NCBI GenBank assembly: GCA_023247075.1
Contig: JAHFHD010000004.1
Coordinates: 1 to 39,822, forward strand
DNA: 39,822 bases
Direction of reading: 5' to 3'
Origin: Candidatus Omnitrophota bacterium
GTDB taxonomy: Bacteria > Omnitrophota > Omnitrophia > Omnitrophales > Danuiimicrobiaceae
The notes below the pieces were generated by a model. The model searched no databases. It was not told the DNA's origin and saw nothing but the letters and a program-made list of their open reading frames with translations. Shown here piece by piece: positions 8,456 to 39,822 of this stretch (within the stretch, counting starts at the first letter, position 1; each line of letters starts with the position of its first letter). A program made the translations under genes and the position numbers.

Positions 8456-9769
8456 ATGAAATTTAAAAAATTACCAATTCTTACTCTTCTCTCATTTTTG
8501 ATTGTCATTACTGGCTGCAGTAAAAAAACAGAATCCGGGATTACTACTGGACAGCCCAAAGTCATTAGCGTTGCGTTTTGGGGTTCGCCAGAGGAAATCA
8601 GCATTGTCACCAAATCAACAGAGGTATGGCAGAAGGCAAATCCCCAAATCCAAATTCGTTTTGAACACACTCCCTATTCTGGTTACGATTCAAAAATTTT
8701 GACACGCATTGCAGGCGGCGCAGCGCCCGATGTAATTGCCGCCGAGGTCAATTATTTTGTGACTTTTGCAACGCACAATGTGTTTTACGACCTCGCCCCT
8801 TTTATCAAAGCCGACACGGATTTTTCTTTAGATGATTTTTTCCCTTCCATTGTCAACCGTTTTAAGGTGGGGGACGCGGTTTATGCCATTCCAAGAGATG
8901 TGGCGCCTTTCGCCTGTGTTTTTTACAACGAGGATTTGTTTGACCAGGCAGGGCTCGCATACCCAAAAGACGATTGGACTTGGAACGATTTACTTTCAAT
9001 GGCAAAGGCACTTACAAAACGCGACAACACCGGACGCGTTACCCAGTATGGTTTCTACGGCTGGGCCTGGCAGGACTTTGTTTATGGCAATGGCGGCAGC
9101 CTTGTGGATGATGTGGCACATCCAACCAAAACTTTAATTGATGATCCAAAATCAATCGAAGGGCTCCAATTTTTTAGCGACTTGATTAACAAGCACCAAG
9201 TAATGCCCGCTCCAGTAGCGCTTGCCAATATGGGAATGGGCATCGACAACATGTTTGCAGGCGGAAGACTCGCCATGTTTCTCTCCGGAGTTTGGGAAAC
9301 ACCTGCGCTGCGCGAAAAATATTCTTTTCGCTGGAACGTAGCGATGTTTCCAAAGAATCAAAACGGCGTGCGCCGTTTTGGAAGCGGCGGTACAGGTTAT
9401 GGTGTTCTTAAATCAACCCGACATCCAAAAGAAGCGTGGGAAGTAGTGAAGCTGCTCACAAGCGCTCAAGTCCAAGCTGAAAGCGCAAGACGCGGACTTG
9501 CCCAGCCTTCGCGCCGCGCCGTTGCTTTGGGTAAAGATTGGGCAGAGAATAATCTTCCACCTCAAAATAAGCAGATGCTGAATGAAGCGGTTGATTATAT
9601 TGTGTTTGACCCCTTCCATCCAAAGTGGAGGGAGATTGAAGCAAAGCTGATTATTCCAGAACTTGATTTGTTAAAGTCCGGAAAGAAAACAGCCGTGGAG
9701 GCAGCGCATGACATCGCTCCAAAAATCAATCAATTGCTTGTCTCAATTAATAATCATTCAACGTCCTGA
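8456..9769 (+). CDS. Sugar ABC transporter substrate-binding lipoprotein
   Basis: Lipobox ITG|C; AGGAAPDV, FYNEDLFDQAG and WTWNDL motifs of cluster-1 carbohydrate-binding proteins. Confidence 0.9.
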   Translation: MKFKKLPILTLLSFLIVITGCSKKTESGITTGQPKVISVAFWGSPEEISIVTKSTEVWQKANPQIQIRFEHTPYSGYDSKILTRIAGGAAPDVIAAEVNYFVTFATHNVFYDLAPFIKADTDFSLDDFFPSIVNRFKVGDAVYAIPRDVAPFACVFYNEDLFDQAGLAYPKDDWTWNDLLSMAKALTKRDNTGRVTQYGFYGWAWQDFVYGNGGSLVDDVAHPTKTLIDDPKSIEGLQFFSDLINKHQVMPAPVALANMGMGIDNMFAGGRLAMFLSGVWETPALREKYSFRWNVAMFPKNQNGVRRFGSGGTGYGVLKSTRHPKEAWEVVKLLTSAQVQAESARRGLAQPSRRAVALGKDWAENNLPPQNKQMLNEAVDYIVFDPFHPKWREIEAKLIIPELDLLKSGKKTAVEAAHDIAPKINQLLVSINNHSTS

Positions 9770-9906: not shown

Positions 9907-12366
9907 ATGAGCGAAACCATGGTGGCAACTAAAAAAAATTCAAGCAGCAAAGATGAATCCCCAAAAGCAGAAGCAAAAGCTTTTGAATCTAAATACGGGC
10001 ATTTCACAAAAGATGGCCGTGAGTATGTCATTACACGGCCGGACACGCCGCGTCCATGGGTCAATGTGCTTTCAAATGGTGATTATGGCGCGATTGAATC
10101 ACAAACCGGTTCCGGATTTTCGTGGCGCGACAATTCCAATCTTTCAAGAATCACGCGCTGGGAACAGGATTTAATTCGGGACAACTACGGCAAATACTTG
10201 TACCTTCGAGACCGAGACTCAGGTAATTACTGGTCTGCAACCTTTAAACCTTGCATGCCCAACTTCGATTTTTTTGAAGCGAGATACGGATTTGGCTACC
10301 TAATCTTAACCAGTGTTTTAAATGAAATCCGCGCAGAGAAAACGGTATTTGTGCTTCAAAATGAACCAGCCGAAGTTTGGCGTCTTGTGCTTACTAATGA
10401 ATCCGACCGGACACGCAATTTGAGCGTGTTCAGTTATTTTGAATGGTGCCTTGGAAACGCAGCCGACACGCATCGGGAATTTCAAAAAACATTTATCGAA
10501 ACCTGGTTTGACGCAAAACTCGGAGCGTTGTGGGGAATGAAACGCGCAGCACTTGTGCCGGGTTTTATTTCAACCGGTTTGTCAGAAAATCCGCTCACGG
10601 CTTTTCTGGCGCTTGCCAACGTCAAACCTGCCGGATTCGAGGGGGCAAAGGAAAACTTTTTAGGTCGCTACGGCGAAATGCATTCTCCCGAAAGTGTTCG
10701 GCTTGGAAAATTAACAAACACAACCGGAAAACATTATGACCCAATGGCGGGCCTTCAGGCCGATGTTTCTCTTGAGCCCGGAGAAAGCAAAACGCTCATC
10801 TTTGTACTGGGCGGAACGAGCGACCAAGCGCAAGCTGCACGAATTGTGAAGCAGGTTGCCAGTGAAGCAAAAGCAGAAACTGCATTAAATGAGGTCAAAC
10901 TATTTTGGCGGGAACTTTTCGACCAAACGATGATTGACACGCCTGACGAAGCGATGAATTTTATGACCAACGGTTGGCTCAAATATCAAGCAATTGCCGG
11001 CCGAATTTGGGCGAAATGCGGTTATTACCAATCAAGCGGCGGTTATGGATTCCGCGACCAACTTCAAGACAGCCACATTTTTCTTCCGCTCAAACCTGAG
11101 TGGACGAAGAAACAAATTTTGGTGCATGCCGAACAGCAATTTGCAGATGGAACGGTGCATCACTGGTGGCATCCGGGAACTAAAATTGCGGCGGTGACTC
11201 ACATGACCGATGATCTTCTGTGGCTCGCGTTTCTCACGCTCCATTATTTGGAAGAGACCGGGGACATGGCGATTTTAAACACCAAGGTTAATTTTTTGCC
11301 GGACCCAAAAACAAAAAAAGTGACAAGCGCCACGCTTTACGACCATTGCGCAAGAGCAATTGATTGCGTGCTTGGCCGGTGGTCAAAGCGCGGACTTCCA
11401 TTAATTGGTGAAGGGGACTGGAATGATGGGTTGAGCCACGTGGGCCTGAAATGGAAGGGCGAATCGATTTGGCTTGGACAATTTCTGTACGGAATTCTTC
11501 AGAAATTTGTACCTCTTTGCGAGCTCAAGAAAGAACGCGCTCGTGCGGCCAAATATTTGAAACGTGCGGAAGCCCTTAAAACAGCCATCAATAAACACGG
11601 CTGGGAAGGCGACCGTTACATTGGCGCAACCCGAGACGATGGCCGTCCACTCGGAAGCAAAACTCAAAAAGAAGGGAAAATTTTCTTAAACACCCAGACA
11701 TGGGCGGTCATTCAAAATGCAGCGACGCCAGAACGGGCAAAAATTTGTATGGAGACAGCAGAGAAACTTCTATTTAAAAAATATGGTCCGCTTCTTCTAA
11801 CGCCTGCCTACACGGTAACGGATCCAACCATCGGTTACCTTTCCCGGTATGCGCCTGCTGTTCGGGAAAACGGCGGCCTTTACACGCATGCCGGCACATG
11901 GGCAATTCAGGCGCTTGCGATGATGGGTAGTGGTGATAAAGCGCATGAGGTGTATCAAAGTTTTTCGCCGATCTTGAGGAGTTCTGACCCAGATCTTTAT
12001 TTCGTGGAGCCTTATGTGTTGCCTGGAAATGTGGATGGACCTGAATCACCACACTTTGGCCGCGGCGGCTGGACTTGGTACACGGGCGCCGCCGGTTGGT
12101 ATTTTAGAGTCGTACTGGATTATGTGCTTGGAATCCACGCCACTTTAGATGGACTTCAAATCAATCCCAGCATTCCAAAAAAATGGGATGGATTTAAAGT
12201 GAAACGTCTCTTTAGGGGCGCCACCTATGAAATCGCGGTTCGGAATCCGAACCACGTTTCATCCGGGGTCAAGAAAATAACAGTTAATGGCGAGCCCATC
12301 GAAGGAAATGTTTTAAAACCACTTAGTGAAAAGGGTCCACACAAGGTAAGCGTAACACTTGGGTAA
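9907..12366 (+). CDS. GH94 glycoside phosphorylase (cellobiose phosphorylase/NdvB-like)
   Basis: TPRPWVNVL, YQSSGGYGFRDQLQD, GDWNDG (catalytic Asp), RENGGLYTHA and GGWTWYTGAA motifs. Confidence 0.93.
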   Translation: MSETMVATKKNSSSKDESPKAEAKAFESKYGHFTKDGREYVITRPDTPRPWVNVLSNGDYGAIESQTGSGFSWRDNSNLSRITRWEQDLIRDNYGKYLYLRDRDSGNYWSATFKPCMPNFDFFEARYGFGYLILTSVLNEIRAEKTVFVLQNEPAEVWRLVLTNESDRTRNLSVFSYFEWCLGNAADTHREFQKTFIETWFDAKLGALWGMKRAALVPGFISTGLSENPLTAFLALANVKPAGFEGAKENFLGRYGEMHSPESVRLGKLTNTTGKHYDPMAGLQADVSLEPGESKTLIFVLGGTSDQAQAARIVKQVASEAKAETALNEVKLFWRELFDQTMIDTPDEAMNFMTNGWLKYQAIAGRIWAKCGYYQSSGGYGFRDQLQDSHIFLPLKPEWTKKQILVHAEQQFADGTVHHWWHPGTKIAAVTHMTDDLLWLAFLTLHYLEETGDMAILNTKVNFLPDPKTKKVTSATLYDHCARAIDCVLGRWSKRGLPLIGEGDWNDGLSHVGLKWKGESIWLGQFLYGILQKFVPLCELKKERARAAKYLKRAEALKTAINKHGWEGDRYIGATRDDGRPLGSKTQKEGKIFLNTQTWAVIQNAATPERAKICMETAEKLLFKKYGPLLLTPAYTVTDPTIGYLSRYAPAVRENGGLYTHAGTWAIQALAMMGSGDKAHEVYQSFSPILRSSDPDLYFVEPYVLPGNVDGPESPHFGRGGWTWYTGAAGWYFRVVLDYVLGIHATLDGLQINPSIPKKWDGFKVKRLFRGATYEIAVRNPNHVSSGVKKITVNGEPIEGNVLKPLSEKGPHKVSVTLG

Positions 12367-12396
12367 TTTTTCAAAGCTTTAATGCTAAGGTATTAA

Positions 12397-12425
12397 TTGA
12401 CTAGGTTTTCAAGCAGCACTATAAT
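12397..12425 (+). promoter_or_regulatory. Near-consensus sigma70 promoter
   Basis: TTGACT-N17-TATAAT upstream of the CDS at 12489. Confidence 0.75.
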
Positions 12426-12488
12426 CAACACACTTTTTTAAAGCTTTTAATTCTTCTCAAAAGAAGTTAATTTACACTCATCAATTTA

Positions 12489-14492
12489 ATGGCTCTGGAA
12501 TTATTTTCCAATTTAAAAGTCAGGGCCGCATTCTTGCTCTTTCTCAGTATGGCAAGCTGTCCAAGTCTAATTTTGGGCGCTCCATTTGATGAAATCTCAC
12601 CACATAAAAATTTTGCCTCAAACAGTAAGTTTCAGGTGATTGATGACTTTGATTCTGGCATTTCTCAAAGTCATGTACAGACAAAATGGGAAATGCGCGG
12701 GTCTGGGGGTTCTGAGATTTCAGCAACCTCCATATCCGAAGATGGTTTTAAAAAATGGGGAAGAGCTGCACAATTAAATTACACCATCTCAAAACACAGC
12801 AGCGTAGAATTTTTCGTGCCGCTTGAGGGGCTTGACGTAAGCCGAGCAAAAGGGCTTATGCTTCTTGTTAAAACAGAAGAACTGAATACACTAGGCAACA
12901 TTACAGTGTCGCTTTCTGACATGGCTGGACATCAAAGAGCAGCAGATTTGAAGCAATTTGTGATGACGCCTACTCCAAAAACAGTTCAATCTGGGTGGAG
13001 TGTAGTTGATGTCCCAATTCAGAAATTCCAATTGCTGGACTTAAGCCGCCTTGAGCGGCTTACTTTCTTGATTGAAAGCGAAAATGCGAGCCATGGGCAA
13101 ATTACTTTTGATGAGCTTGCGTTCTTTGGCACGGGCGACCTTGTATTTGATTCTCATCGGGACAATTTGATTGCATTCCCCAAACAAACTGTCCAGTCAA
13201 AGAGACGCGAGGCGCTTTTGCGTCCCCAAGCCGACGCAACATTTTTTATGGAAATTGCCAAAGATACGTGGGGATATTTTAGAGACGAGACAGACCGCGA
13301 CACAGGGCTTTTGGTTGATCACATCCGGCTTGGGAAACAAAAAAGCATCGGAAGTTATATCAGCCCCACCAACATTGCTTTTTACTGGCTTGCGTGCGTG
13401 GCTGCAAGCGAATTGGAGATTATTTCAAAGCAGGAAGCCATAAAACTTGTTCGAAAAAGCTTTGAGTCTTTTAAAAAGCTGGAACGCTGGGAAAATGGAT
13501 TCCTTTTTAATTTTTATCAAACCAGGAGCTCAATTCCCACACGGCGCTATGTTTCTACGGTTGACAATGGCTGGCTTGCAGCCGCACTTGTTGTTTTAAG
13601 GCAGGCATTTCCAAATGAGTTTGGCGCGGAAGCAACTGCTTACCTTGATGAACTCGATTTTTCAAAATTTTATGACTCAAAAAACGGCCAGCTTCGAATC
13701 GGTTATGACGCTGACAAACATGCATATGCGCCTTATCACTACGGCCTTTTGGTCACTGAAGCGCGCATTGCAAGTTACGTTGCAATTGGAAAAGGAGACA
13801 TTGGCCGCGAGCATTGGGCGAAAATGTACCGAACCCTTCCCGGCTCTTGGGAGTGGCAAAAGCAAGCGCCCGGGGGAGCCGAGAAAACTCTTTTTGGCGT
13901 ACCTGTTTTTGAGGGTCATTACACTCATGCCGAACACTCATTTGTTCCAAGCTGGGGTGGTTCGCTCTTTGAATTTCTAGCACCAACTTTAGTGGTTGAT
14001 GAGCAGGCGTTTGCGCCAAAAAGTTTGGGAAAGAACAATCGATTGGCAGCCCAACTTCATGTAGAATATGCGCTGCATGAAAAAGGCTACCCAGTTTGGG
14101 GGCTTGCGCCATGCGCCATTCAAAACGGAAACGGATGGAGTTACCGAGAATACGGCGCGCCAGAGCTTGGCGCAAAAGGGTATTCGGATCTCGGGATTGT
14201 TGCCCCTTACGCATCTTTGTTAGCAATTGAAATTGATTCTGACGCGGTCAGTCGGAATGCGCGTGAATTTCTGAGCCGTTACAAAACCATTTATGGGCCT
14301 TACGGGTTTTATGATTCAGTTCAGGTTTCAAATAGCGGGATCAATCCCCAGTATCTTGCGCTTGACCAGGGGATGATTTTTATTGCCATTGCAAACTATT
14401 TAAAACACGGCACGATTCGGAACTACTTTCACCAAGATCCGGTTGGAAAAGTAGTTCAGGAGTTGATTCAAGAAGAAGAGTTCTTGCTGTGA
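12489..14492 (+). CDS. Secreted DUF3131/'glucoamylase'-type glycoside hydrolase (GH144/GH189 beta-1,2-glucan clan) with N-terminal CBM-like domain
   Basis: Signal-like N-terminus; SPTNI, YVSTVDNGWL, EARIASY, SWGGSLFEFL, GPYGFYDS and YLALDQGM motifs resemble the cyclic beta-1,2-glucan synthase middle domain and GH144. Confidence 0.8.
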   Translation: MALELFSNLKVRAAFLLFLSMASCPSLILGAPFDEISPHKNFASNSKFQVIDDFDSGISQSHVQTKWEMRGSGGSEISATSISEDGFKKWGRAAQLNYTISKHSSVEFFVPLEGLDVSRAKGLMLLVKTEELNTLGNITVSLSDMAGHQRAADLKQFVMTPTPKTVQSGWSVVDVPIQKFQLLDLSRLERLTFLIESENASHGQITFDELAFFGTGDLVFDSHRDNLIAFPKQTVQSKRREALLRPQADATFFMEIAKDTWGYFRDETDRDTGLLVDHIRLGKQKSIGSYISPTNIAFYWLACVAASELEIISKQEAIKLVRKSFESFKKLERWENGFLFNFYQTRSSIPTRRYVSTVDNGWLAAALVVLRQAFPNEFGAEATAYLDELDFSKFYDSKNGQLRIGYDADKHAYAPYHYGLLVTEARIASYVAIGKGDIGREHWAKMYRTLPGSWEWQKQAPGGAEKTLFGVPVFEGHYTHAEHSFVPSWGGSLFEFLAPTLVVDEQAFAPKSLGKNNRLAAQLHVEYALHEKGYPVWGLAPCAIQNGNGWSYREYGAPELGAKGYSDLGIVAPYASLLAIEIDSDAVSRNAREFLSRYKTIYGPYGFYDSVQVSNSGINPQYLALDQGMIFIAIANYLKHGTIRNYFHQDPVGKVVQELIQEEEFLL

Positions 14493-14596
14493 AGGTGCAA
14501 AATCAGAACTCAAATCAGAAATTAGTTTTTAATCGTTAATACACAAAATTATTTAACAAGCAAATAAAAATCAAATGTTCGAAAGGAGAAACAAAA

Positions 14597-15223
14597 ATGA
14601 TGAAACCATATGCAATTGCGCTTTTAGTGATTGCGCTTGTTTGGTCAACACCAGTGCTGGCAGAAGAAGCTCAGGAATTTCCAGGCGTTTCCAGCGGAAC
14701 AGTTGGCGCAGAACTTGTCATCGCCGATTTTAATTCAGGGGACAAACCGAATAATGTTGGAGGGGATTTTGGTTCTTGGGACAAAGACCCCAATGATGAA
14801 AGCCAGGGCGCCAAGATTAATTTTGAGTCAGGAGACGCTCTTGGCGACGACACAGGTTACTCGCTTCGTATTGACTATGACGTCGACTCTTCAAATCCCG
14901 CGTACAATGGTTTGTGGATGAAACTCCAGAATCTGGACGCCACCAAGTACAATACTCTTTCATTTTATGTTCGCGGAGACGTGCAGCGCGGTTTTACCAA
15001 GCGGGTAAAAATTGAATTGAAAGATAATTCCGGTCAATCATCTCAATTCATCATCACAGGCATTACCGAGCAATGGCAGAAATTTTCAATTCCTTTTGAA
15101 AAATTTCGCCGAATCAAATCTTGGGACGCACTTACTGAGTTTGTATTGGTGTTTGATGACATCAACACAAATCCAAAAACCGGTTCTATTTACGTAGATC
15201 AAATTGCGCTTTCCTCTGAGTAA
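14597..15223 (+). CDS. Secreted carbohydrate-binding (CBM11/CIA30-like) domain protein
   Basis: Signal peptide VLA|EE; LVIADFN, LSFYVRG, WQKFSIPF and GSIYVDQI beta-sandwich pattern; AAGGAG RBS. Confidence 0.75.
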   Translation: MMKPYAIALLVIALVWSTPVLAEEAQEFPGVSSGTVGAELVIADFNSGDKPNNVGGDFGSWDKDPNDESQGAKINFESGDALGDDTGYSLRIDYDVDSSNPAYNGLWMKLQNLDATKYNTLSFYVRGDVQRGFTKRVKIELKDNSGQSSQFIITGITEQWQKFSIPFEKFRRIKSWDALTEFVLVFDDINTNPKTGSIYVDQIALSSE

Positions 15224-15275
15224 TAGCGATGAGAAAAGCACAAGAATATTTAAGTCTTAAGAAAGGAGGGCAATC

Positions 15276-16493
15276 GTGATTAAACAAATGCTTTTGAAGG
15301 ACAGAATTCTCACTGACAGGGAACGGAAAAATCTTGCCATTCTTGAGGTGGTTCGTAAAAACGGGCCTATTTCAAGAACGGATATTTCAAAAATCACCGA
15401 GCTCAACATTGTGACCGTTTCCAATTACGTGGCGCATTACATCAAACAGGGGTTGATTATCGAAGGAGAATTGGATGAATCAACAGGCGGCCGCAAGCCG
15501 GTTTTGGTGGAGCTTAACCCAAAGGCGGGTTACATCGTGGGCGTGGGTCTCAACATGCTCAACATGGTGGGCGTGCTTGTGGATCTTGAAATCAACGTGA
15601 TTACAGAAATCAAGCGGGAACGCATCCCTGAAAACTCTGAAGCAGTCGTCAATCAAATGGTGGACCTGGTTGCAGAGTTAATTGACAAGTCTGACGTAGA
15701 CAAAACTAAAATCGTAGGTGCAGGTGCAGGCATCCCGGGAATCATTGACGAACGCGGGCGAACTGTCCGGTGGCCGCAGAGTTTGGGCGAAAAAGATATT
15801 TCCGTCTGCCTTTCAATCAAGGACACATTTGAACGGCGGCTTAAAATTCCAACCTTCGTTGAAAACGATGCAAACGCGGCCGTTTTGGGCGAGAAATGGC
15901 TTGGGCTTGACCGGGACGTCAAACATCTTTTGTACATGTTTTCAGGCGTCGGTGTCGGCATTATTGTGAACGGGGAAATTTACCGCGGGGTAAGCGGTGC
16001 GGCCGGAGAGCTTGGCATTTCCAGTCCAAAGATTGATGCGAGTGAAGTGCTTGCTTTAGCACCCCAACTCGGGCGATGGGAAATGGATCTTGGCATGACC
16101 CGAAGAGCCCGTGAATTGGTCAAAAAGGGAAACACCTCTGTTTTAAAAGATTTGGCAAGCGGCGACGCAGACAAAATTAGCTTGAAAGATTTTGTGAAAG
16201 CGGTAAAACAAAAAGACCCGCTTGCGCTTCGAGTGGTCGAAGAGGGCGGTTACGCACTTGGCAAAAAGATTGCATTCCTCGTGAATCTTTTGAATCCGGA
16301 AATTGTCGTGATTGGTGGAGGCATTGAAGATTGCGGCGCGCCGCTTTTAGATGCGATTAAGAATGCGGTGAAAGAGTGGGCAATTGAAGAAGCTGCTTCG
16401 CGCGCGAAAATTATTCCGTCTGCTTTTGGAGAAAATGCAGTTGCTTTAGGCGTTGTTGGTATTGTGGCCCGAGAAGTGTTTGCGCAGGCTTAA
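15276..16493 (+). CDS. ROK family transcriptional regulator
   Basis: N-terminal HTH (GPISRTDI...STGGRKP); ENDANAAVLGE, GVGVGII and GAAGELG motifs; AAGGAGG RBS with GTG start. Confidence 0.93.
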   Translation: MIKQMLLKDRILTDRERKNLAILEVVRKNGPISRTDISKITELNIVTVSNYVAHYIKQGLIIEGELDESTGGRKPVLVELNPKAGYIVGVGLNMLNMVGVLVDLEINVITEIKRERIPENSEAVVNQMVDLVAELIDKSDVDKTKIVGAGAGIPGIIDERGRTVRWPQSLGEKDISVCLSIKDTFERRLKIPTFVENDANAAVLGEKWLGLDRDVKHLLYMFSGVGVGIIVNGEIYRGVSGAAGELGISSPKIDASEVLALAPQLGRWEMDLGMTRRARELVKKGNTSVLKDLASGDADKISLKDFVKAVKQKDPLALRVVEEGGYALGKKIAFLVNLLNPEIVVIGGGIEDCGAPLLDAIKNAVKEWAIEEAASRAKIIPSAFGENAVALGVVGIVAREVFAQA

Positions 16494-30993: not shown

Positions 30994-33900
30994 ATGCAAG
31001 GACGTTTTTTAAAGTCTGTTTCACTCATCACCGCTGCTGTATTTTCCATCACCCAATTTTCATTTCCTGAACGTTTAAACGCTTCGGTCATTCCTTCTCC
31101 CGCATTTAATTTTGAACAGGCATCTTCGCGAGTTAGCGCTGCCGCACCTTTTCGACTCTCCATTCCCAAAGAACTTGCTGCAATTAACAACATTCATTCT
31201 GGAGTTGGGCCAAAGTTAATTCATATTCAAACTTCACACATGAGTTTTGAGGCCCAGAAAAAAATCAAAAGCATTTTGAAACACCTTGAGAAAGAAGAGG
31301 GAATCAAAACACTTTTTTTAGAAGGCACTGCTTTTAAGCTAGACCCATCACTCCTTCGCTTTTTCCCAACCCGCCCGGATTTAAACGAAAAAGCGCTTGA
31401 GCAACTCTCCCAAAAATCCTTAGTTGATGGAGCAGAACTTTTTCTTGCTGATTCTCAAAACGCAAGTGCGTACGGCATTGAAGACGCAGAAGTTTACAAA
31501 AAAGGCACCGAAATTTTTCGCGACGTTTTGCGCGCGCGCCGCGGGTCAGAGCAATTCCTTAAAGATTTTGACCAGCAAATTTCCCGCATTGCAAGCACCC
31601 GGCTAAATCCAAAGCTAAGGGATTTTTTAAAAGAGTGCAGCCGCTACACGAGCGGCACAAATAGCCCGAGCAGCCAGATTTCATTTTTAAAACAGCGCGC
31701 ACTAGAAACGCTTGAGCTTGAGTTTACCAATCCGGTGAATCAAGTTGATTGGCCCATGCTCGTGCGGCTTACAAAATTAGAAAAATGGGAAAAGGAAATT
31801 AATCAAGCCGCACTCAAAAAAGAAAAAGATTTGTTTCTTGCGGTAGTCTCAAAAAAACTTACCCCATCTCTTGCGGCTTTAATTGAAGAATTGCTTTCCT
31901 CGCCGCTTGTGTCTTCAACCAGGTCAAGCGACGGCTTCGACCTAATTTTTGAAGAGATGGCGGACAAGCTGCCTCGAGATTTTAATTACGCAGCTTACCC
32001 AAATCTAAATCGTGCCATTGGTTTTCGCCTGTTAAATAGCGAAATCGACCCCTCTTTGCTCATGAAGGAAGTCGAACAGCTGAGTCAAAAAATCGCAGAG
32101 TCACTGGCGCAAAGCCAAACCGAGAAAAAAATCCTCGACGTGCTTAACAAACATCGTTTGCTTCGAAAACTATTTGCACTTGAGCTCGGCCCAGATGATT
32201 ACGAAGAAATTCAACAGCTGTCATTGCGAGAAGCCCCGAATGGGGCGACGAAGCAATCTCAGTTCTGGATTGCTTCGTCAACACTTGGAACGCTTCCTCG
32301 CAATGACGAAACGTCAAAGCGCTTACGGGCATATTTTCAACCATCTCAGCTAATTCAAGAATTGCTCGCACTTTGCGTGTCCGAACATGTAAGCGTTGCT
32401 GCATTTGACAGTCATCTAGGAGAAATCGACCAGTTGTTTCGCCGAGCACTTGATTTTTACGCGGTGGTCAAAGAGCGTGACCAGTGCATGATTCGAAATG
32501 TGGAACGCCGATTTAAAGAAACGGGTGTGGATAAAGCAGTGGTAATTACCGGCGGTTTTCACTCACGACCGTTTCAGGAATATTTTTCAAAACACGGTTA
32601 TCGCTACGCGCTTCTTTCGCCTAATTTTACTTCTGGTTCAAAAGAAGATTCTGAAGAGGGCAAAGCGGGTTACATCCGATTCATTCTTGAAACTGACCCG
32701 CGGAAGCTCGAAACTCAAACCCACGCAGCCACTCCAATTGCGCAGGACGAAGTTAATTTCGCGCCGCTTGGTTATGATTTCAAAATTACCGCAACACTTG
32801 TCCGGGATGAGTTGAGAGCCACCTTCGGGACAACGCCTTCATCAGCCTTTAACCCAAAGGTTGCTGCCCATTGGGGGATTCAACTTCCCGCTTCCGTTAT
32901 TGATAAAGGAATTGCTCCTCGCCAGGAAGTGCGCTCCTCAGCGCATAGCTCAAAAGCGCCGGAGCCCGCTCGTCAACACCGCCAAGGGATACGCGGTTTT
33001 TACAATGAAGAAATTAGCTTTGTGGAACTTATGTTGATTACCGCTTTATTGTCCTTTCTGTCTTTAGGTTTTTTCCCATTTTTTGTTGCGCACGGCATTC
33101 AACAAAAGAATAGATTTTTAGTTATCGTAGCTGGTATCCCAAGCGCTTTAGCAGCAGTTGGATTTTTGGGAGCGCTTGCCTATTTTCTCAACTGGAGTAT
33201 CCAACGACGCTTGAAAAAGAGCAACACCACAATTGCCGGCGAAGTTCCTAGAAAAGAACTTCGCGCGAGCAAAAACCCACTGTCTTTAGGAAAGTATTTA
33301 GCAGGAACGGCGTTTAGATTAGCAGCTTCCTTCGCGCTTGCGGGAACGCTTTTTGTAACATCCGTTTTTGCTCAATCAGATTCTCAAGGACAAACCGGCC
33401 GCCCAACAACTAATTCAACTGCGCTGGTTCGACAAAGAAAATCGGACGGCGGATCGACGATTGAAATTTTTAGCCCAGACGGAGCAAAAATAAAGCTCAC
33501 AAAACTTGTTGCTCAGTCCATGAAAACGCCAGGCGGCGATTGGTCGCTAATTTATTCCGAGCCCGGCAGCCGTTTTCTTAGCGGCCGCGCTCAAGCGCGT
33601 GATTTAGAGACAAAGGAGTCGGGATGGGTTACAAGGTTTCAAGCGGAGCTGCCCGAGTTTGATTTGATATTTACCTTTACGAGTCAAAAGCCCGACCAAT
33701 TTGAAGTTACAGTTACTGGCATGAACGGCAGCCAAATTAACCCCCGTCCTGAACTGCGGAGTAAATTATCCTCATCACGCCCCAAAATCCATCCCAAACA
33801 ACCTCCTTGGAGGTTTGTTAGGAGGCTTAAGGAGATCGCCGCCAGTAAAACTGTCTCCACGAAAGGCAGCGTTCCTCCTGCACGGGTTTTTACGGGGCGA

Positions 33901-36900
33901 AGAAATTTATCGAAAACGAAGCAAGCGCCTCAACCGGCGGTTTTCCACCCGAGAAAAAAATGGGCATCTACCGTATCAGCCAAAAGACAGTTGGACAGAA
34001 ACAGAGAAAGAGAAGGGCCTGCAAAAACATATCAACAAAAGGGCCTGGGCGCGAAGGGTGGAAGCACAGGGAACGGTCACACACGACAACTCAGCGGACG
34101 CATGGGGCGGCTAAGGGCTTTTGTGGTTCAGTTTGGTTTTGGATTTCTTATGTGGTCGGCTGATTTGGTTGCTCAGGACGCACCTCAACAAGGCCAGAAC
34201 TTTTTGCGTTCGTCTGGAGAGGTTATCAATCCAAACGCAGCTACCTACGCGCACGCTGAACTGCGAAGCAGCGAAAGGCTGGTTCAATTAATTGATTCCC
34301 GAAGCGCATGGGAAGACGTTGACAGTTTTGTAAAACAATTTGAGCGTCAAGCTAAAAAGCGCATTGCGGCAAATTTAATGAGCACAAGCGGTCCATTACT
34401 TAACGAGTTTTTTGAGGGACTTGATTTTACCCATGACTGGATTCATTTCTCTAGTTCTCACAAAAATCGGCTAATCATTTTGAAATTTGGAAAAGTGGGA
34501 ACAACTAAAACAGGAGCGAGCGTTTACACAATAGAACTGGATTTCAAAAATCAAAAATCGTACGTTGCGAAAAACTCGCTGGATAATCTTTTATTTAAGC
34601 CGCTTCCCATCGAACTCAATCAATTACGCGCAATCGAATTTGATTTTAAGCGCGGCATAATCCATTTCAAATTCACTTCACCGCCCAATCTTGAATCTTT
34701 AAAAAGCGCACTCGGGCCAGATTTATTTGAGCGAGTCAAGTTTGAGATGTTTGAAGAAGTGACACACGGCAAAGTTTCTGTGCCGCAGGATTTTCAAACG
34801 TACGCTTCGCTTTTGCAAAATGAACGTCGCCACAGCGCGCGCGACTTTGCAGACTATGTGAATGCCATGTTAATTAAGTATCCAGACGGCAGAACCACTG
34901 GCGCCGACCAAAAGTTTGATGATGAAGTGACGGCTCTTCATCCAGAAATCGCAACACTTTGGTTTATGGTTTCAATCGCTAGCAAGGTGGTTGAAAATCC
35001 AGCCGCTCCACCGAACAGTTATTTTGGAAGCTTTGAGCAAGCTTATTTGCGGCGTTTCGACAAATACAAAATGTTTGAAGCAACAAGAAAACAAATACAC
35101 ACAATCCAAGTTTCCCGAAAAAGTAGAGAATTCCCCAAACTTGTTTTTCCTACTCTAAATATCTCGCTCCCATTGACTCAAACGGACACACTTCAATTTG
35201 AATTGGAAGCTGGCAATCGTCAAGAGCTTCGGAGCAATTTATTTCAATTCAGCAGAAGGGGAATTATCTTTGCATCTTTAATGGGTTTTATTGCTGTAAG
35301 CGAGCTTCTTACACCTGCAGTCGCTAGCGATGAAAGTTTGCCAGTTACTGATGAGCAAACAGTGAGCACTCAAAGCGAAAGCCCCGCTCCTTTAACAGAC
35401 CTGTATCCGTTGGTTCAAGCGCCATCTGATTTGGCACAGGCCATCCCGTATCTTGAAAAGAAACTGACTGAGTTTGAAATCGAAGGGGGCGGCGGTCTGC
35501 TCCGCTCCTATTATGTTGATGATCGAGACAAACAGTTTCTCGAATTTAAAAATATCACCTGCATTTATGATCAAGCTATTGCGATCGTCGCGATGACCGC
35601 TTTAGGCCGGCAGGAAACAGCAGAGCGTTGGATGCGGGCATTAATTCGATCTGCACATCCTGACGGGCAATTTCCATTTTTTGTTCGCTACGACAAGAAT
35701 GAGTCAGATCCCTACTACAGGACAGGCTCCCAAATGTGGGCAGCATATGCGATGGGATTTTTCTTACAAAAATTTCCAGAAAGTTCGCTAACTCCTCACA
35801 TTAAAGCGGCACTCAAAAAGCACTTGGATGCCATGATTAAAAACTATTGGCTTGAAGGAAGTGAACAAGGCACTCAGGAAGATACTTTCACCGGAGGCAA
35901 AGGCCAGTACCCAAATTACCCAAAAACGGAAGGTTTCGATCCAAAACCTAAGCAGTGGAGCAGCACGAAGCAGAATATCGATGCTTATTTTACTTTGGAG
36001 CTAGCCGGCAGGGTTTTGGGCGACTCAAAATATACCGCCATCGCTCAGCGCGTCAAAAAGGCTCTCCTCAATCGACTCTGGAACAATGAAAGCAATGAAG
36101 CGTATCAAGGGGTTACGGGCCCTGCCGGTCAAGATAAAAATCACGCTCTGGATGTCGGTTCCTGGTACAGCATCTTTGCTTCTTTGGTTGGTGAACACGA
36201 TCGCGCGAAGCTGGCTTTAAAAAGCACGGATCAGTATCTGGTTGTTGAAGAAGGCGTCCGTGGATACACACCTTATCTAAAGGAAAGAGGATATCCTGAA
36301 GCGGCGGGCGGAATTTGGGGCGAGGGAACAGCAGGCGTCCTCCTCGCAAAAAGATTGGCGCCGCGACCTGCAGAGACAGAAGTTGTAGATGATGTTGAGA
36401 ATTTATTAAAGCTGATGACAGACCATGGCCTTTTGGATCACACCCAAAATGTCGAGATTGATGATTTAAAACGTTTGCCTTCTGCGGTCTCGACAGCCTG
36501 GACTTTAATCGCTCTCCATCCGAATGGGTTTTGGAACACGGATGTGCCTCCGCTAGGTGCAAAACCCGTGGAAGCACCTGCCAGAGAAATTCGTAAGGAA
36601 CTTCGAAGCAATCCATTTCAATTCAGCAGAAGGGGAATTGTCTTTGCATCTTTAATGGGTTTTATTGCTGTAAGCGAGCTTCTTACACCTGCAGTCGCTA
36701 GCGATGAAAATTTACCAGCCGCTGATGAGCAAACAGTGAGCGCTCAAAGCGAAAGCCCCGCTCCTTTATTTGACATACCGTTGGCTGGATTTGATTCTCA
36801 AATAGGCAGGGTTGTTAATAAAAAGCTTACAGTGACGAAGGGTAGCGACGGCAAAATAACGGCTAGGATTGTTGAAGACTTTGAATTGTCAGAAACTCCA

Positions 36901-39822
36901 AAACGTGAAGCGGCCCCCGCCATATCTACTTCTCCCCAAAAAATTGTTTTGACCGGACAAACTCAGGATGAAAAAAAAGTGTCTTTCATTGGCTCGAAAG
37001 GCGAGAAAAATAACTACGCTGGAATTGTCATTTTTGAAACACAGGTTACTTCCGAGTTTTTTGACGCCCCCCTGCTTCTTAAAGAGATGTACACAGTATC
37101 AAGCGACCAGGCTTCTGAAAAGAATAGTGAATGGTATGACAATAATAAAGTCTTGGTTCAAAAAATTAATTCAGACGGTTCCATCGAACTCTTCAGTCCC
37201 AAGAAAAGTTTGACGGTGCATATTTCAAAAGAAGATGCCAACGGCCGCCAAAGTTTAACCATCCACACCCCTTCTGCTCAAGGTAATGTTGAGGGAAAAG
37301 CATGGACTGAAAAATCCTCAGGACTTGTGGAAGGTGTTAATGGAAATAGCTTCAATAACCCCGGGTGGAGCCTCTTCGTTAAAAGGCTCGAAGATGGGTC
37401 GCTCAAGGTTTTTCTTACGAACCTGTATCCATTGGTTCAAGCGCCATCTGATTTGGCGCAGGCCATCTCGGATCTTGAAGCGAAACTGATTGATTTTGAA
37501 ATCGAAGGAGGAGGCGGCCTCCTTCGTTCTTATTACGTCAATGACCGAGACGAGCAATATTTGTGGGTTAAAGACATCACCTACATTTATGATCAAGCGG
37601 CTGCAATAGTTGCGATGACTGCTTTAGGCCGGCAAGAAATAGCAGAACGTTGGATGCAGGCGCTGATTCGGTCTGCACATCCTGACGGGCAATTTCCATT
37701 TTTTGTTCGCTACGACAGGGTTAAGTCAGATCCTTACTACAGGACAGGCTCCCAAATGTGGGCAGCATATGCGATGGGATTTTTCTTACAAAAATTTCCA
37801 GAAAGTTCGCTAACTCCTCACATTAAAGCGGCACTCAAAAAGAACTTGGATGTCATGATTGAAAAGTATTGGCTTGAGGGAAGTGAACAAGGCACTCAGG
37901 AAGATACTTTCATGGGAGGCAAAGGCGTTTATCCAAATTACCCAAAAACGAAAGGCTTCAATCCAAACATTAAAAAAGAGTGGAGCAGCACAGAGCATAA
38001 TATCGATGCTTATTTTGCTTTGGAGCTAGCCGGCAGGGTTTTGGGTGATTCAAGATACGCTGCCATCGCTCAGCGCGTCAAAAAGTCTCTCCTCAATCGA
38101 CTTTGGAATAATGAAAGCAATGAAGCGTATCAAGGAACTAGCCATGAAGGTCCAGATAAAGATCATGCTCTGGACGTCGCTTCTTGGTACAGCCTTTTTG
38201 CTTCTTCGGTCGGGGAACACGACCGCGCGAAGCTGGCTTTAAAAAGTGCGGATCAATATCTGGTTGTTGAAGAAGGCATCCGTGGATACCCACCCTATCT
38301 AAGGGAAAAAGGATATTCTAAAGCGACGGGCGGAGTTTGGGGCGAGGGAACAGCAGGCGTCCTCCTCGCAAAAAGATTGGCGCTGCGACCTGCAGAGACA
38401 GAAGTTGTAGATGATGTTGAGAATTTATTAAAGCTGATGACAAACCATGGCCTTTTGTATCACACCCAAAACGCGGCTTATGATTCAAAACATTTGCCTT
38501 CTGTGGTCTCGACAGCCTGGACCTTAATCGCTATCCATCCGAATGGGTTTTGGAATACGGATGTGCCCATGTTAGGCGCAAAACCCGCGGAAGCACCTGC
38601 CAGAGAAATTCGTAAGGAACTTCGGAACAATCCGTTTAAATCCAGCAGAAAAAGAATTGTTTCCGCATCTTTAGCAGGTCTTATTGCTGTGGGCGAGTTT
38701 TTTACACCCGCACCCGTTTCACAAGCCTCTAGCGATGGAAGTTTACCAGCTACTGATGAGCAAACAGTGAGCGCTCAAAACAAAAGTCCCGCTCCTTTAT
38801 TTGAAATGCCGTTCGGCGCTGAGCTTGACTCTCAAACAGGCAAAGTTATTAATGGAAAGCTTATGGTGACGAAAAATGGCGGCGGCAAAATAACGGCTAG
38901 GATTTTTGGCGGCCCCGTTTCCGAGACACTCATTAAAGAATTTGAATTGTCAGGAATTCCAGAACGCGAAGACACTCCCACTACTCCTAACTCCCCAAGA
39001 AAGATTGTTTTGACCGGACAAACTCTGGATGGAAAGAAAGTGTCTTTCATTGGCTTGAAAGGCAAGAAAAATAGCTACGCCGGCGTTTTCATCGTTGAAA
39101 CCGAAGTCACTTCCGAGTTTTTTGACGCCCCCGTACGTCTTAAAAAGATGTACACAGTATCAGGGGGCAAGGTTTCTGAAAAGGGCAGTGAATGGTATGA
39201 CAAAAATAAAACCTTAATTCAAAAGACTAATCCAGACGGTTCCATTGAATTATTCGATTCCAAGAAAAGTTTGACGGTGCATATTTCAAAAGAAGATGCC
39301 AACGGCCGCCGGAGTGTAACCACCCTCTTTTCAGGTGAAATCCCTTCTGCTCAAGGCTATGTTGAGGGAAAAGCATGGACTGAAGAATCCTCAGGGCTTG
39401 TGGAAGGTGTTAGTGGAAATAGCTTCAACAACCCTGGGTGGCGCCTCGTCGTTAAAAGACTCGAAAATGGGTTGCTGTTTGTGTTACGGAAGTATGTGAA
39501 TACTGACGAAAGCGGCGCTCCAGACCCCCGCTCGTTGTTACCGCCTCTTCCGGCGCAAGATAAGCAAACACCTAATACTGACGAACGGCGTGAGTTGCGC
39601 AGCAGTTCCAAAATAAATTTTTCAAACGCAATACCGGACAGCCATCAGGCCGCAGAATTCCAAACCGTTTCTTTGGGGGGCAAAAATTTAATTATTGGTC
39701 CCAACGGAGCTATGACAAAAATAAAATTAGGAGAATCTTTTGACGATGCCATTGCACGTTACCTTGAAGAAAGACAGCCCGAAAGCGATTCCCTTTCCGC
39801 GCAATATGCCCGCACCGGCGGC
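30994..39822 (+). CDS. Giant multi-module protein, 3' truncated by the window (at least 2943 aa); putative self-processing polyprotein
   Basis: Hand translation of frame +1 found no stop from ATG 30994 (MQGRFLKSVSLITAAVFSITQFSF...) to the window end; in-frame TAA stops lie just upstream. Omitted from the ORF track. Existence of the ORF is secure; function is inferred. Confidence 0.93.
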   Translation, partial: MQGRFLKSVSLITAAVFSITQFSFPERLNASVIPSPAFNFEQASSRVSAAAPFRLSIPKELAAINNIHSGVGPKLIHIQTSHMSFEAQKKIKSILKHLEKEEGIKTLFLEGTAFKLDPSLLRFFPTRPDLNEKALEQLSQKSLVDGAELFLADSQNASAYGIEDAEVYKKGTEIFRDVLRARRGSEQFLKDFDQQISRIASTRLNPKLRDFLKECSRYTSGTNSPSSQISFLKQRALETLELEFTNPVNQVDWPMLVRLTKLEKWEKEINQAALKKEKDLFLAVVSKKLTPSLAALIEELLSSPLVSSTRSSDGFDLIFEEMADKLPRDFNYAAYPNLNRAIGFRLLNSEIDPSLLMKEVEQLSQKIAESLAQSQTEKKILDVLNKHRLLRKLFALELGPDDYEEIQQLSLREAPNGATKQSQFWIASSTLGTLPRNDETSKRLRAYFQPSQLIQELLALCVSEHVSVAAFDSHLGEIDQLFRRALDFYAVVKERDQCMIRNVERRFKETGVDKAVVITGGFHSRPFQEYFSKHGYRYALLSPNFTSGSKEDSEEGKAGYIRFILETDPRKLETQTHAATPIAQDEVNFAPLGYDFKITATLVRDELRATFGTTPSSAFNPKVAAHWGIQLPASVIDKGIAPRQEVRSSAHSSKAPEPARQHRQGIRGFYNEEISFVELMLITALLSFLSLGFFPFFVAHGIQQKNRFLVIVAGIPSALAAVGFLGALAYFLNWSIQRRLKKSNTTIAGEVPRKELRASKNPLSLGKYLAGTAFRLAASFALAGTLFVTSVFAQSDSQGQTGRPTTNSTALVRQRKSDGGSTIEIFSPDGAKIKLTKLVAQSMKTPGGDWSLIYSEPGSRFLSGRAQARDLETKESGWVTRFQAELPEFDLIFTFTSQKPDQFEVTVTGMNGSQINPRPELRSKLSSSRPKIHPKQPPWRFVRRLKEIAASKTVSTKGSVPPARVFTGRRNLSKTKQAPQPAVFHPRKKWASTVSAKRQLDRNREREGPAKTYQQKGLGAKGGSTGNGHTRQLSGRMGRLRAFVVQFGFGFLMWSADLVAQDAPQQGQNFLRSSGEVINPNAATYAHAELRSSERLVQLIDSRSAWEDVDSFVKQFERQAKKRIAANLMSTSGPLLNEFFEGLDFTHDWIHFSSSHKNRLIILKFGKVGTTKTGASVYTIELDFKNQKSYVAKNSLDNLLFKPLPIELNQLRAIEFDFKRGIIHFKFTSPPNLESLKSALGPDLFERVKFEMFEEVTHGKVSVPQDFQTYASLLQNERRHSARDFADYVNAMLIKYPDGRTTGADQKFDDEVTALHPEIATLWFMVSIASKVVENPAAPPNSYFGSFEQAYLRRFDKYKMFEATRKQIHTIQVSRKSREFPKLVFPTLNISLPLTQTDTLQFELEAGNRQELRSNLFQFSRRGIIFASLMGFIAVSELLTPAVASDESLPVTDEQTVSTQSESPAPLTDLYPLVQAPSDLAQAIPYLEKKLTEFEIEGGGGLLRSYYVDDRDKQFLEFKNITCIYDQAIAIVAMTALGRQETAERWMRALIRSAHPDGQFPFFVRYDKNESDPYYRTGSQMWAAYAMGFFLQKFPESSLTPHIKAALKKHLDAMIKNYWLEGSEQGTQEDTFTGGKGQYPNYPKTEGFDPKPKQWSSTKQNIDAYFTLELAGRVLGDSKYTAIAQRVKKALLNRLWNNESNEAYQGVTGPAGQDKNHALDVGSWYSIFASLVGEHDRAKLALKSTDQYLVVEEGVRGYTPYLKERGYPEAAGGIWGEGTAGVLLAKRLAPRPAETEVVDDVENLLKLMTDHGLLDHTQNVEIDDLKRLPSAVSTAWTLIALHPNGFWNTDVPPLGAKPVEAPAREIRKELRSNPFQFSRRGIVFASLMGFIAVSELLTPAVASDENLPAADEQTVSAQSESPAPLFDIPLAGFDSQIGRVVNKKLTVTKGSDGKITARIVEDFELSETPKREAAPAISTSPQKIVLTGQTQDEKKVSFIGSKGEKNNYAGIVIFETQVTSEFFDAPLLLKEMYTVSSDQASEKNSEWYDNNKVLVQKINSDGSIELFSPKKSLTVHISKEDANGRQSLTIHTPSAQGNVEGKAWTEKSSGLVEGVNGNSFNNPGWSLFVKRLEDGSLKVFLTNLYPLVQAPSDLAQAISDLEAKLIDFEIEGGGGLLRSYYVNDRDEQYLWVKDITYIYDQAAAIVAMTALGRQEIAERWMQALIRSAHPDGQFPFFVRYDRVKSDPYYRTGSQMWAAYAMGFFLQKFPESSLTPHIKAALKKNLDVMIEKYWLEGSEQGTQEDTFMGGKGVYPNYPKTKGFNPNIKKEWSSTEHNIDAYFALELAGRVLGDSRYAAIAQRVKKSLLNRLWNNESNEAYQGTSHEGPDKDHALDVASWYSLFASSVGEHDRAKLALKSADQYLVVEEGIRGYPPYLREKGYSKATGGVWGEGTAGVLLAKRLALRPAETEVVDDVENLLKLMTNHGLLYHTQNAAYDSKHLPSVVSTAWTLIAIHPNGFWNTDVPMLGAKPAEAPAREIRKELRNNPFKSSRKRIVSASLAGLIAVGEFFTPAPVSQASSDGSLPATDEQTVSAQNKSPAPLFEMPFGAELDSQTGKVINGKLMVTKNGGGKITARIFGGPVSETLIKEFELSGIPEREDTPTTPNSPRKIVLTGQTLDGKKVSFIGLKGKKNSYAGVFIVETEVTSEFFDAPVRLKKMYTVSGGKVSEKGSEWYDKNKTLIQKTNPDGSIELFDSKKSLTVHISKEDANGRRSVTTLFSGEIPSAQGYVEGKAWTEESSGLVEGVSGNSFNNPGWRLVVKRLENGLLFVLRKYVNTDESGAPDPRSLLPPLPAQDKQTPNTDERRELRSSSKINFSNAIPDSHQAAEFQTVSLGGKNLIIGPNGAMTKIKLGESFDDAIARYLEERQPESDSLSAQYARTGG
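32220..32307. repeat. RPE-like palindrome inside the giant CDS, read in frame
   Basis: gtcattgcgag...gacgaagcaatc...gattgcttcgtc...ctcgcaatgac, translated as SLREAPNGATKQSQFWIASSTLGTLPRND. Confidence 0.88.
35398..38625 (+). repeat. Intragenic duplication of domain A (~35398-36606 and ~37421-38625), six-hairpin glycosidase-like
   Basis: Two ~1.2-kb copies from LYPLVQAPSD to REIRKELR with long identical DNA tracts. Confidence 0.9.
36607..39480 (+). repeat. Intragenic duplication of signal peptide, linker and beta-rich domain B (~36607-37420 and ~38626-39480)
   Basis: Shared KIVLTGQT, TSEFFDAP, SLTVHISKEDANGR, VEGKAWTE and GNSFNNPGW; a third signal/linker copy lies at 35233-35394. Confidence 0.9.

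Follow-up and report, generated by a model that had tools for sequence, protein, structure and literature searches.

The contig JAHFHD010000004.1 of a Candidatus Omnitrophota bacterium (assembly GCA_023247075.1) ends in a giant open reading frame (ORF; positions 30994 to 39822) which, we propose, encodes a polyprotein made of a head domain followed by a string of modules. Our best explanation, held with evenly balanced confidence, is that this polyprotein is cut at a recurrent pentapeptide, [RH]xE[LVAM]R, on the cytoplasmic side of the membrane and that its modules are then sorted one by one. The window, that is, the whole stretch of 39,822 nucleotides analyzed here, is an entire contig (C152) of a 2.28-Mb assembly in 186 contigs that is about 95% complete. 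A sequence-only reading of the window had noticed export signals placed right after RxELR motifs and had suggested that cleavage at the motif would unmask them. The four motif positions concerned (33250, 35218, 36592, and 38611) and the sequences that follow them were exactly as that reading had given them, and an n-region, an h-region, and a small-x-small site are present right after the motif in all four.

A pentapeptide recurs at module junctions

Scanning the giant ORF for [RH]xE[LV]R yielded nine sites, eight of them of the form [RH]xELR and one RQEVR (Table 1). The codons used for the glutamate (GAA/GAG), the leucine (CTT/CTG/TTG), and the arginine (CGC/CGG/CGA) vary among the sites, and it is therefore the peptide that is conserved and not the DNA. 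The source genome contains 50 stop-to-stop frames of at least 1500 amino acids (aa), which sum to 156,304 aa, or about a fifth of the assembly. In these giants [RH]xELR was found 135 times, whereas the remaining 1538 frames of at least 150 aa yielded 43 occurrences. Position -2 of ELR in the giants is occupied by arginine in 105 of 179 cases and by histidine in 29 of 179, while small ORFs have an arginine there in 21 of 204. For the full motif [RH]xE[LVAM]R, we counted 135 leucine, 34 valine, 33 alanine, and 15 methionine versions in the giants versus 28, 9, 14, and 5 in small ORFs, and the four variants are 7.5- to 15.6-fold enriched in the giants. The motif also recurs in 36 giant ORFs of relatives (16 plus 20, selected by head match and large frame size), where the middle residue is lineage specific (V, A, M, or L).

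Sister ORFs with Pfam matches show where the sites fall. A citrate synthase (residues 1257 to 1645) sits between sites at 1246 and 1667, a UDP-glucose dehydrogenase (607 to 1052) comes after a site at 592, a PduO-type adenosyltransferase (3814 to 3987) after a site at 3804, an SDR (80 to 271) after a site at 63, and MeaB (691 to 940) after a site at 651; an epimerase/mutase block is likewise preceded by a junction site. This arrangement supports, indirectly, the view that [RH]xE[LVAM]R marks the boundary of independent protein-sized modules and that it is conserved in this role across the order. The surroundings of the junctions are in general polar, small-residue linkers. If the cut fell in the cytoplasm immediately behind the arginine, P1' would be expected to be poor in the N-degron residues L, F, W, Y, K, and R; these were counted 57 times there, compared to 117.5 expected, but P2', P3', P6, and P7 are depleted too, so that the effect is unspecific. 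Judging from the sequence, [RH]xE[LVAM]R is most likely an endoproteolytic site.

One locus of the source genome (C171:3673-19447) holds two adjacent polyprotein ORFs with an SDR, MeaB, an epimerase-like module, methylmalonyl-CoA mutase, a B12-binding domain, citrate synthase, and PGM. ORF 1 of this locus contains the junction context AETIMHSELR twice, and a 226-aa SDR stretch of the C171 polyprotein is duplicated with 100% identity in an upstream frame (C171_1244). When the citrate synthase module was used as a probe across 61 genomes (matches in 53), it was not found to be shared as a polyprotein part; the matches listed outside the source genome all lie in frames of at most 480 aa and are 27 to 46% identical.

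The polyproteins also have a common ending. All 11 complete polyproteins compared (C17, C6, C131, C38, C146, C175, C25, C171, C13, C8, and C186) terminate in -AA or -SA, as do 8 of 9 closed ORFs of relatives (loci compared: L062, L066, L067, and L073 to L077), versus 35 of 1431 ordinary ORFs. BLAST revealed no shared tail domain among the 11 complete polyproteins, which have only the terminal -[AS]A in common. We take this ending to resemble an ssrA-like C-terminal tag.

The motif is absent from 19 of the 50 giants. Five motif-free frames of 4231 to 7758 aa (C44, C59, C109, C110, and C166) each run off at least one contig end, and four of these (C44, C59, C110, and C166) cluster with C60 and probably represent a different, repeat-type class of giants.

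Signal-peptide-like segments follow four of the sites

At four of the nine junction sites, a signal-peptide-like h-region of 13 to 18 uncharged residues begins 8 to 20 aa downstream. The charge before the h-region is +3 (K3, K10, and R18), +2, +2, and +4 in segments 1 to 4, respectively, and the segments end in small-x-small sites, namely, VFA before Q, (P)AVA before S twice, and (PAP)VSQA before S. In the encoded chain the segments are internal, starting from residue 758 for the first to residue 2545 for the last, and they would be N-terminal only after a cut at the motif. Their 19-aa Kyte-Doolittle values are 1.56 to 1.80, compared to 2.16 and 2.22 for the two transmembrane (TM) helices of the ORF; beside these true TM spans, the lower hydrophobicity makes the postmotif segments look like cleavable signal peptides. 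Three of the four (segments 2 to 4, scored at +2, +2, and +4) passed a crude rule-based signal peptide test, segment 1 failing on the h-core threshold alone.

Segments 2 and 3 have the consensus SN(L/P)FQFSRRGI(I/V)FASLMGFIAVSELLTPAVA followed by SDE. Segment 4 differs from them at 13 to 16 of 36 codons and yet has kept the charge, the h-region, and the small-x-small end, a mode of evolution that is typical of signal peptides. The positive charges precede the h-region, which corresponds to start-transfer polarity with the N-terminal flank inside. The motif, 8 to 20 residues upstream, should therefore be cytoplasmic when the signal engages.

The sequence-only reading had seen a twin-arginine-like motif in some of these n-regions. 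Signals of the twin-arginine translocation (Tat) pathway have the consensus S/T-R-R-x-F-L-K. The resemblance lies in S-R-R-x, present in two copies, in the moderate hydrophobicity of the h-region, and in the AxA end. However, the n-region motifs are SRRGIIF, SRRGIVF, and SRKRIVS, so that no F-L-K follows the arginines and the third paralogue, with R-K-R, no longer has the RR pair, and no cofactor-binding passenger is evident. The 60-aa fragments after the sites gave no match to TIGR01409 or PF10518 at E values up to 10, a negative that is limited by the HMMER filters, which lose most matches above about 0.1. The Tat machinery is encoded in the genome, though (TatC, 191 bits, C19:27041-27664; TatA, 75.6 bits, C19:24974-25123). 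We read the segments as probably Sec-type. The module-wise sorting at RxELR that the earlier reading had put forward thus finds indirect support in the junction role of the motif, in the signal anatomy, and in the exported homologues, topology, and internal-start results described below, while the Tat route is not supported.

The passenger family is normally exported

The module at positions 35233 to 36606 (module 6) carries at residues 85 to 440, approximately, a passenger with weak Pfam similarity to GH94 and GH88 and hence termed glycoside hydrolase (GH)-like here. A word-indexed search with this module returned no homologue at 1e-5 among proteins of 251 to 802 aa, and the module had no match in 40 genomes of the family and order. 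An exhaustive HMMER search recovered 486 representatives of the passenger family at an E value of at most 0.001, 298 of them at 1e-10 or below, and they form a large, unnamed helical family. Long homologues bear PASTA, CBM5/12, Big, and glucodextranase-B domains. Among the free-standing homologues (26 members of 391 to 501 aa picked among 150 listed), 22 start with a signal-like hydrophobic stretch, which in some includes a lipobox or RR, and the passenger family is therefore normally exported. The signals in the window occupy the same place as the N-terminal signals of these free-standing relatives. A single-sequence AlphaFold 2 (AF2) model of module 35233-36606 had a predicted local distance difference test (pLDDT) score of 39.6 and was unusable.

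The repeated passenger also bears on topology. No further hydrophobic segment lies between the signals of modules 6 and 7 or between those of modules 7 and 8. With a single hydrophobic segment separating them, the 84%-identical GH-like copies of an uncut chain would be put on opposite sides of the membrane.

Hydrophobic segments are enriched after, not before, junction sites

We defined a hydrophobic segment as a 15-aa window with a Kyte-Doolittle value of at least 1.7 and counted it if it started at most 30 aa from a site. The giant ORF holds nine such segments, and about 9.5% of its positions would qualify. Five of its nine sites have a downstream segment (the four RxELR sites and RQEVR, the latter at +26), which corresponds to a binomial P value of about 7e-4; with the three paralogous copies counted once, the figure is 3 of 7 sites (P of about 0.02). 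The tests on the source genome and on the relatives used the broader motif [RH]xE[LVAM]R and random positions drawn in the same ORFs. In the source genome, 19 of 213 sites were followed by a segment, compared to 7.9 ± 2.7 for random positions (P = 0.001), and 7 of 213 were preceded by one (7.8 expected). The 16 ORFs of relatives gave 15 of 173 downstream versus 6.1 ± 2.4 (P = 0.0005) and 1 of 173 upstream (6.1 expected), and the 20 further ORFs gave 13 of 219 downstream versus 7.1 ± 2.5 (P = 0.02) and 5 of 219 upstream (7.5 expected). The enrichment of hydrophobic segments immediately downstream of the sites is about 2.2-fold in the source genome and the relatives, and upstream there is either no effect or a depletion, with the qualification that the sites are not independent in these tests, paralogues being present. 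The enrichment after the sites is real but modest, and the giant ORF is an unusually rich case.

Some postmotif signals of the relatives look like textbook examples (L083, site 1922; L073, site 4585; L064, site 6177; L100, site 4948; and L101, site 1246). They include a lipobox-like type (...ILGSC) and AxA types (...SALA before Q, ...ATA before E, and ...AIA before E), and one is Met-initial (RHAFLKK).

A conserved head opens the polyproteins

A head profile of about 570 aa, built from 15 copies, matches residues 10 to 570 of the giant ORF and 28 ORFs of the source genome, always N-terminally (start residue 7 to 131). All 25 head ORFs of at least 800 aa contain at least one junction site. Conversely, 15 ORFs of at least 800 aa with at least three sites are headless, and the N terminus of 12 of these lies off the contig. 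The head was found in all 61 sampled genomes of the order, with 2 to 37 matches each, most of them in frames of 1000 to 15,709 aa. Its N terminus is Sec-signal-like in nearly all of the 30 members listed, with an n-region of mostly +1 to +4, an h-region of 15 to 18 aa, and many AxA-like ends.

In the alignment of 15 heads, H82, E110, and E163 are invariant, and H77 and H523 (GGFH) are nearly so. The AF2 model of the head reached a pLDDT of 75 and shows a helical insert of about 340 aa. Pfam gave no match to the head at E values up to 0.1, and Foldseek found none to the head model in the PDB at an E value of 0.001 or below. Structural comparison with VIA-align returned HopBA1 (Z of 8.6), EreC (8.4), 2rad/2qgm of the Bcr135 type (8.1), and ChaN (7.8), with PMT at rank 32. 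The TIKI superfamily is listed as consisting of exactly these matched proteins in the accessible part of PMC6254334, where it includes RRSP, a site-specific endopeptidase whose catalytic motif is 2His/2Glu. Of the top six VIA-align rows, five belong to this superfamily, aligned over 154 to 183 residues, with Z scores that the tool grades as middling. The invariant His and Glu residues of the modeled head may correspond to the 2His/2Glu of RRSP, while the large helical insert and the negative Foldseek and Pfam results set the head apart from this superfamily. A TIKI/Ere/ChaN-like fold is thus plausible for the head, albeit not secure.

Where and how the chain may be cut

In our favored explanation, the giant ORF would be one of about 28 head-plus-modules polyprotein genes in the genome. 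Cutting would occur on the cytoplasmic side, while the chain is being translated or shortly afterwards. Modules with no signal would remain in the cytoplasm, and polytopic ones would insert into the membrane. The modules at residues 758 to 922, 1414 to 1871, 1872 to 2544, and 2545 to 2869 would expose a Sec-type signal at their new N terminus, be exported posttranslationally, and be trimmed by signal peptidase I near VFA (before Q), AVA (before S), and SQA (before S).

Several observations weigh against this explanation. Cleavage is something we infer from the sequence. Among candidate proteases that are Arg-specific or had been proposed before, neither Peptidase_C14 nor S8 turned up in the 95%-complete assembly, and C39 gave two matches, both in ORFs other than the giant one. 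Three of the four segments are paralogues, so that the four signals amount to two independent events. With strict RxELR and the giant ORF removed, 8 of 127 sites in the source genome had a downstream segment, compared to 4.6 expected (P = 0.07), and the crude signal peptide test was passed after 5 of 213 sites in the source genome (2.8 expected) and 7 of 173 in the relatives (2.4 expected). In addition, the head is probably exported and poorly placed for cutting on the cytoplasmic side. It is the only module shared in cis, and it probably lies outside the cytoplasm, whereas the polarity of the signals asks for an inside cut; the topology puzzle raised by the sequence-only reading, in which the precursor has an N-terminal signal of its own, is therefore a real one.

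The cysteine content is a further point on this side. Cysteine makes up 0.12% of the residues of giants with sites and 0.18% of those without, compared to 1.21% in ORFs of less than 1000 aa, a depletion of about 10-fold. The giants of the relatives are similar, with 0.11% in the first 16 (L062 to L077) and 0 to 0.21% in the other 20 (L082 to L101), and the giant ORF has 4 cysteines in 2946 residues. Fourteen enzyme modules of polyproteins contain 3 cysteines in 4743 aa, versus 36 in 2870 aa of free-standing paralogues from the same genome. This suggests an extracytoplasmic or unfolded-transit fate of the whole chain, and a mainly cytoplasmic life of most modules leaves it unexplained. On the other hand, MeaB, methylmalonyl-CoA mutase, and a PduO-type enzyme are encoded in this assembly inside polyproteins alone. 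If these sole-copy, cytoplasmic-type enzymes serve the cell's own metabolism, not all modules can be exportable. Because the exported head, the cysteine depletion, the sole-copy enzymes, and the negative protease searches could not be reconciled, we kept our confidence in a cytoplasmic-side cut evenly balanced and retained rival explanations.

The chain may not be cut at all but act as one very long membrane protein, the motif being a linker or docking element and the hydrophobic segments TM anchors. Uncut giants are the default in the accessible parts of the phylum literature, no protease or cleavage product is known, and the polar, small-residue character of the junctions would suit linkers. 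We nonetheless consider this unlikely: the membrane would separate the GH-like copies from each other, and likewise the paralogous N-terminal portions of modules 7 and 8; the genuine TM helices of the ORF are longer and more hydrophobic than the segments, which carry a proline plus small-x-small ends; and a charged pentapeptide kept across the order while its flanks vary would be unusual for a passive linker. Far less probable still, and close to negligible in our estimate, is that each module is synthesized on its own, through internal translation starts or 2A-like recoding at the motif. The lack of stops between gene-sized modules leaves room for it. However, internal starts, which the sequence-only reading had named as something that could refute its proposal, were not found: in none of the four cases does the stretch from the motif to its h-region contain an in-frame start codon (ATG, GTG, or TTG) with a Shine-Dalgarno sequence, and the sole ATG encodes a Met within the h-region, 17 codons past the motif. 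Moreover, the motif is kept as a peptide through synonymous codon changes, so it is translated, and we know of no 2A-like skipping in bacteria.

The remaining rivals take the exported head at face value. The whole chain might be exported through Sec by the head signal and be cut outside by the TIKI-like head in cis, the segments serving as stop-transfer anchors or tethers. Family-wide signal-peptide-like head N termini, the 10-fold cysteine depletion, and the presence of one head per polyprotein, which suggests a function in cis, are in keeping with this, as is the match of the head model to a superfamily that includes endopeptidases such as RRSP in the accessible part of PMC6254334. Yet the positive n-regions give the segments start-transfer, not stop-transfer, polarity, the paralogous modules meet the same parity problem as in an uncut chain, and the sole-copy ATP-, CoA-, NAD-, and B12-dependent enzymes would land outside the cytoplasm; we rate this reading as rather unlikely, somewhat below that of an uncut membrane protein. 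Finally, the polyprotein could be cut inside a prey or host cell to which it has been delivered, its internal signals using the Sec system of the recipient and wall-degrading modules reaching the recipient's envelope from inside. The polyproteins would then be delivered cargo rather than housekeeping fusions, with an exported head leading a nearly cysteine-free chain and the enzyme modules rewiring the prey cytoplasm. This would reconcile the exported head, the cysteine depletion, the cytoplasm-type enzymes, and the start-transfer polarity, and one preprint (10.1101/2023.11.21.568195) portrays the phylum in its accessible text as predatory or host-dependent. Delivery is, however, entirely inferential, nothing linking the giant ORF to it, and we regard both the route and the notion of the polyproteins as cargo as improbable.

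Relation to known systems

Giant proteins of Omnitrophota have been described by West-Roberts et al. (2023; 10.1101/2023.11.21.568195), who, in the accessible part of their text, suspect cleavage, state that information on cleavage points is lacking, and point to C39 and S8 domains. A more recent preprint (bioRxiv 10.64898/2026.06.07.730766) defines a "multi-enzyme metabolic cluster" class of giants, and its accessible text does not mention cleavage or motifs. These published multi-enzyme giants are like the present ones in belonging to the same phylum, in having stop-free ORFs that string together unrelated enzymes, and in the suspicion of cleavage; unlike them, the polyproteins studied here have a mapped junction pentapeptide, TIKI-like head, and internal export signals. 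Our literature searches returned no description of this junction motif or of internal signals after it, and nothing on Omnitrophota polyproteins, although preprint supplements might list motifs.

The closest mechanism is that of the alphavirus structural polyprotein, in which the capsid protein cuts itself off in the cytoplasm and the new N terminus of the next protein, E3/p62, carries a signal sequence that directs the downstream part to the membrane (as given in the accessible part of PMC5580485). A cytoplasmic cut exposing a downstream signal is just what would happen here. In contrast, the alphavirus system is viral and eukaryotic, with cotranslational targeting to the endoplasmic reticulum, and has one such event per polyprotein, the later junctions being dealt with by TM segments and signalase. 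The polyprotein examined here has up to four signals, no intervening stop-transfer segments, and a bacterial chromosome as its origin.

MARTX toxins are processed by an internal cysteine protease domain after delivery into the eukaryotic host. Among bacterial systems they come nearest to modular autoprocessing: proteolysis between modules frees several effectors from a very large protein, and one of these effectors, RRSP, has a TIKI-superfamily fold according to the accessible part of PMC6254334 and would thus resemble the head in fold. They differ from the giants studied here in having no internal Sec signals and in using type I secretion, and we found no sequence similarity between the two.

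A defined junction pentapeptide provides a testable answer to the published question of whether Omnitrophota giants act whole or are cut, and the start-transfer-type signals sit exactly where a new N terminus would arise, the passenger family that bears them being one whose members are normally exported. If cleavage is true, a free-living or predatory bacterium would devote about a fifth of its coding capacity to polyproteins of the viral kind, with each product sorted on its own. Proteolysis would in effect take the place of operons, and giant ORFs that defy annotation, thousands of them, could be read as lists of ordinary proteins. The exported head and the 10-fold cysteine depletion are two puzzles whose answers would tell where, and by what, the chains are cut.

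Other features of the giant ORF and the window

The features of the giant ORF are given in Table 1. Pfam scanning of its eight modules gave no significant match and only the weak GH94/MGH1 similarity.

Table 1. Features of the giant ORF, in window coordinates
Feature	Positions	Strand	Remarks
Giant ORF	30994..39822	+	2943 codons, stop-free to the contig end; candidate head-plus-modules polyprotein
Head N-terminal hydrophobic helix, FLKSVSLITAAVFSITQF	31006..31059	+	Signal-peptide-like; preceded by MQGR; AF2 helix 2-22
Head domain	31141..32718	+	Conserved; TIKI/Ere/ChaN-like fold plausible; large helical insert
Junction site 1, RDELR	32803..32817	+	End of head
Junction site 2, RQEVR	32920..32934	+	Val variant; TM helix starts 26 aa downstream
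Small two-TM module	33010..33192	+	Two strong TM helices, 19-aa Kyte-Doolittle 2.16 and 2.22
Junction site 3, RKELR	33250..33264	+	Motif scan
Signal-like segment 1, ASKNPLSLGKYLAGTAFRLAASFALAGTLFVTSVFA then QSD	33265..33372	+	n-region with K3, K10, R18; 18-aa uncharged h-region; VFA site
Junction site 4, RPELR	33745..33759	+	Followed by a very basic module with no N-terminal hydrophobic segment
Junction site 5, HAELR	34252..34266	+	Followed by a 322-aa module with no signal
Junction site 6, RQELR	35218..35232	+	Motif scan
Signal-like segment 2, SNLFQFSRRGIIFASLMGFIAVSELLTPAVA then SDE	35233..35325	+	Sequence anatomy
GH-like passenger, copy 1	35485..36552	+	All-helical; weak GH94/MGH1 Pfam similarity
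Junction site 7, RKELR	36592..36606	+	Motif scan
Signal-like segment 3	36607..36699	+	Paralogue of segment 2; 31/36 codons identical
GH-like passenger, copy 2	37414..38625	+	84% identical to copy 1
Junction site 8, RKELR	38611..38625	+	Motif scan
Signal-like segment 4, NNPFKSSRKRIVSASLAGLIAVGEFFTPAPVSQA then SSD	38626..38727	+	Diverged paralogue; SRKR for SRR; SQA end
Junction site 9, RRELR	39586..39600	+	Next module signal-free, ends at the contig end

The module at positions 33760 to 34266, between RPELR and HAELR, is extremely basic and of low complexity. A hydrophobic segment, AFVVQFGFGFLMWSADLVA, at positions 34117 to 34173 lies near its C-terminal end and is possibly a tail anchor. A minus-strand ORF of 167 aa (36113 to 36616) is located wholly within the giant ORF and is most likely spurious.

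A genetic-code artifact was ruled out, since the remaining 24 ORFs of the window are normal-sized genes under table 11. Positions 1 to 30900 contain genes of normal length, including a pst operon with phoU, sulfate assimilation genes, bioB/bioF, and sugar genes. The sugar cluster (9907 to 16493) consists entirely of separate genes, among them a GH94 phosphorylase (9907 to 12366), a glucoamylase-like/DUF3131 protein (12489 to 14492), and a ROK kinase (15276 to 16493), and it is adjoined by a solute-binding protein gene at positions 8456 to 9769.

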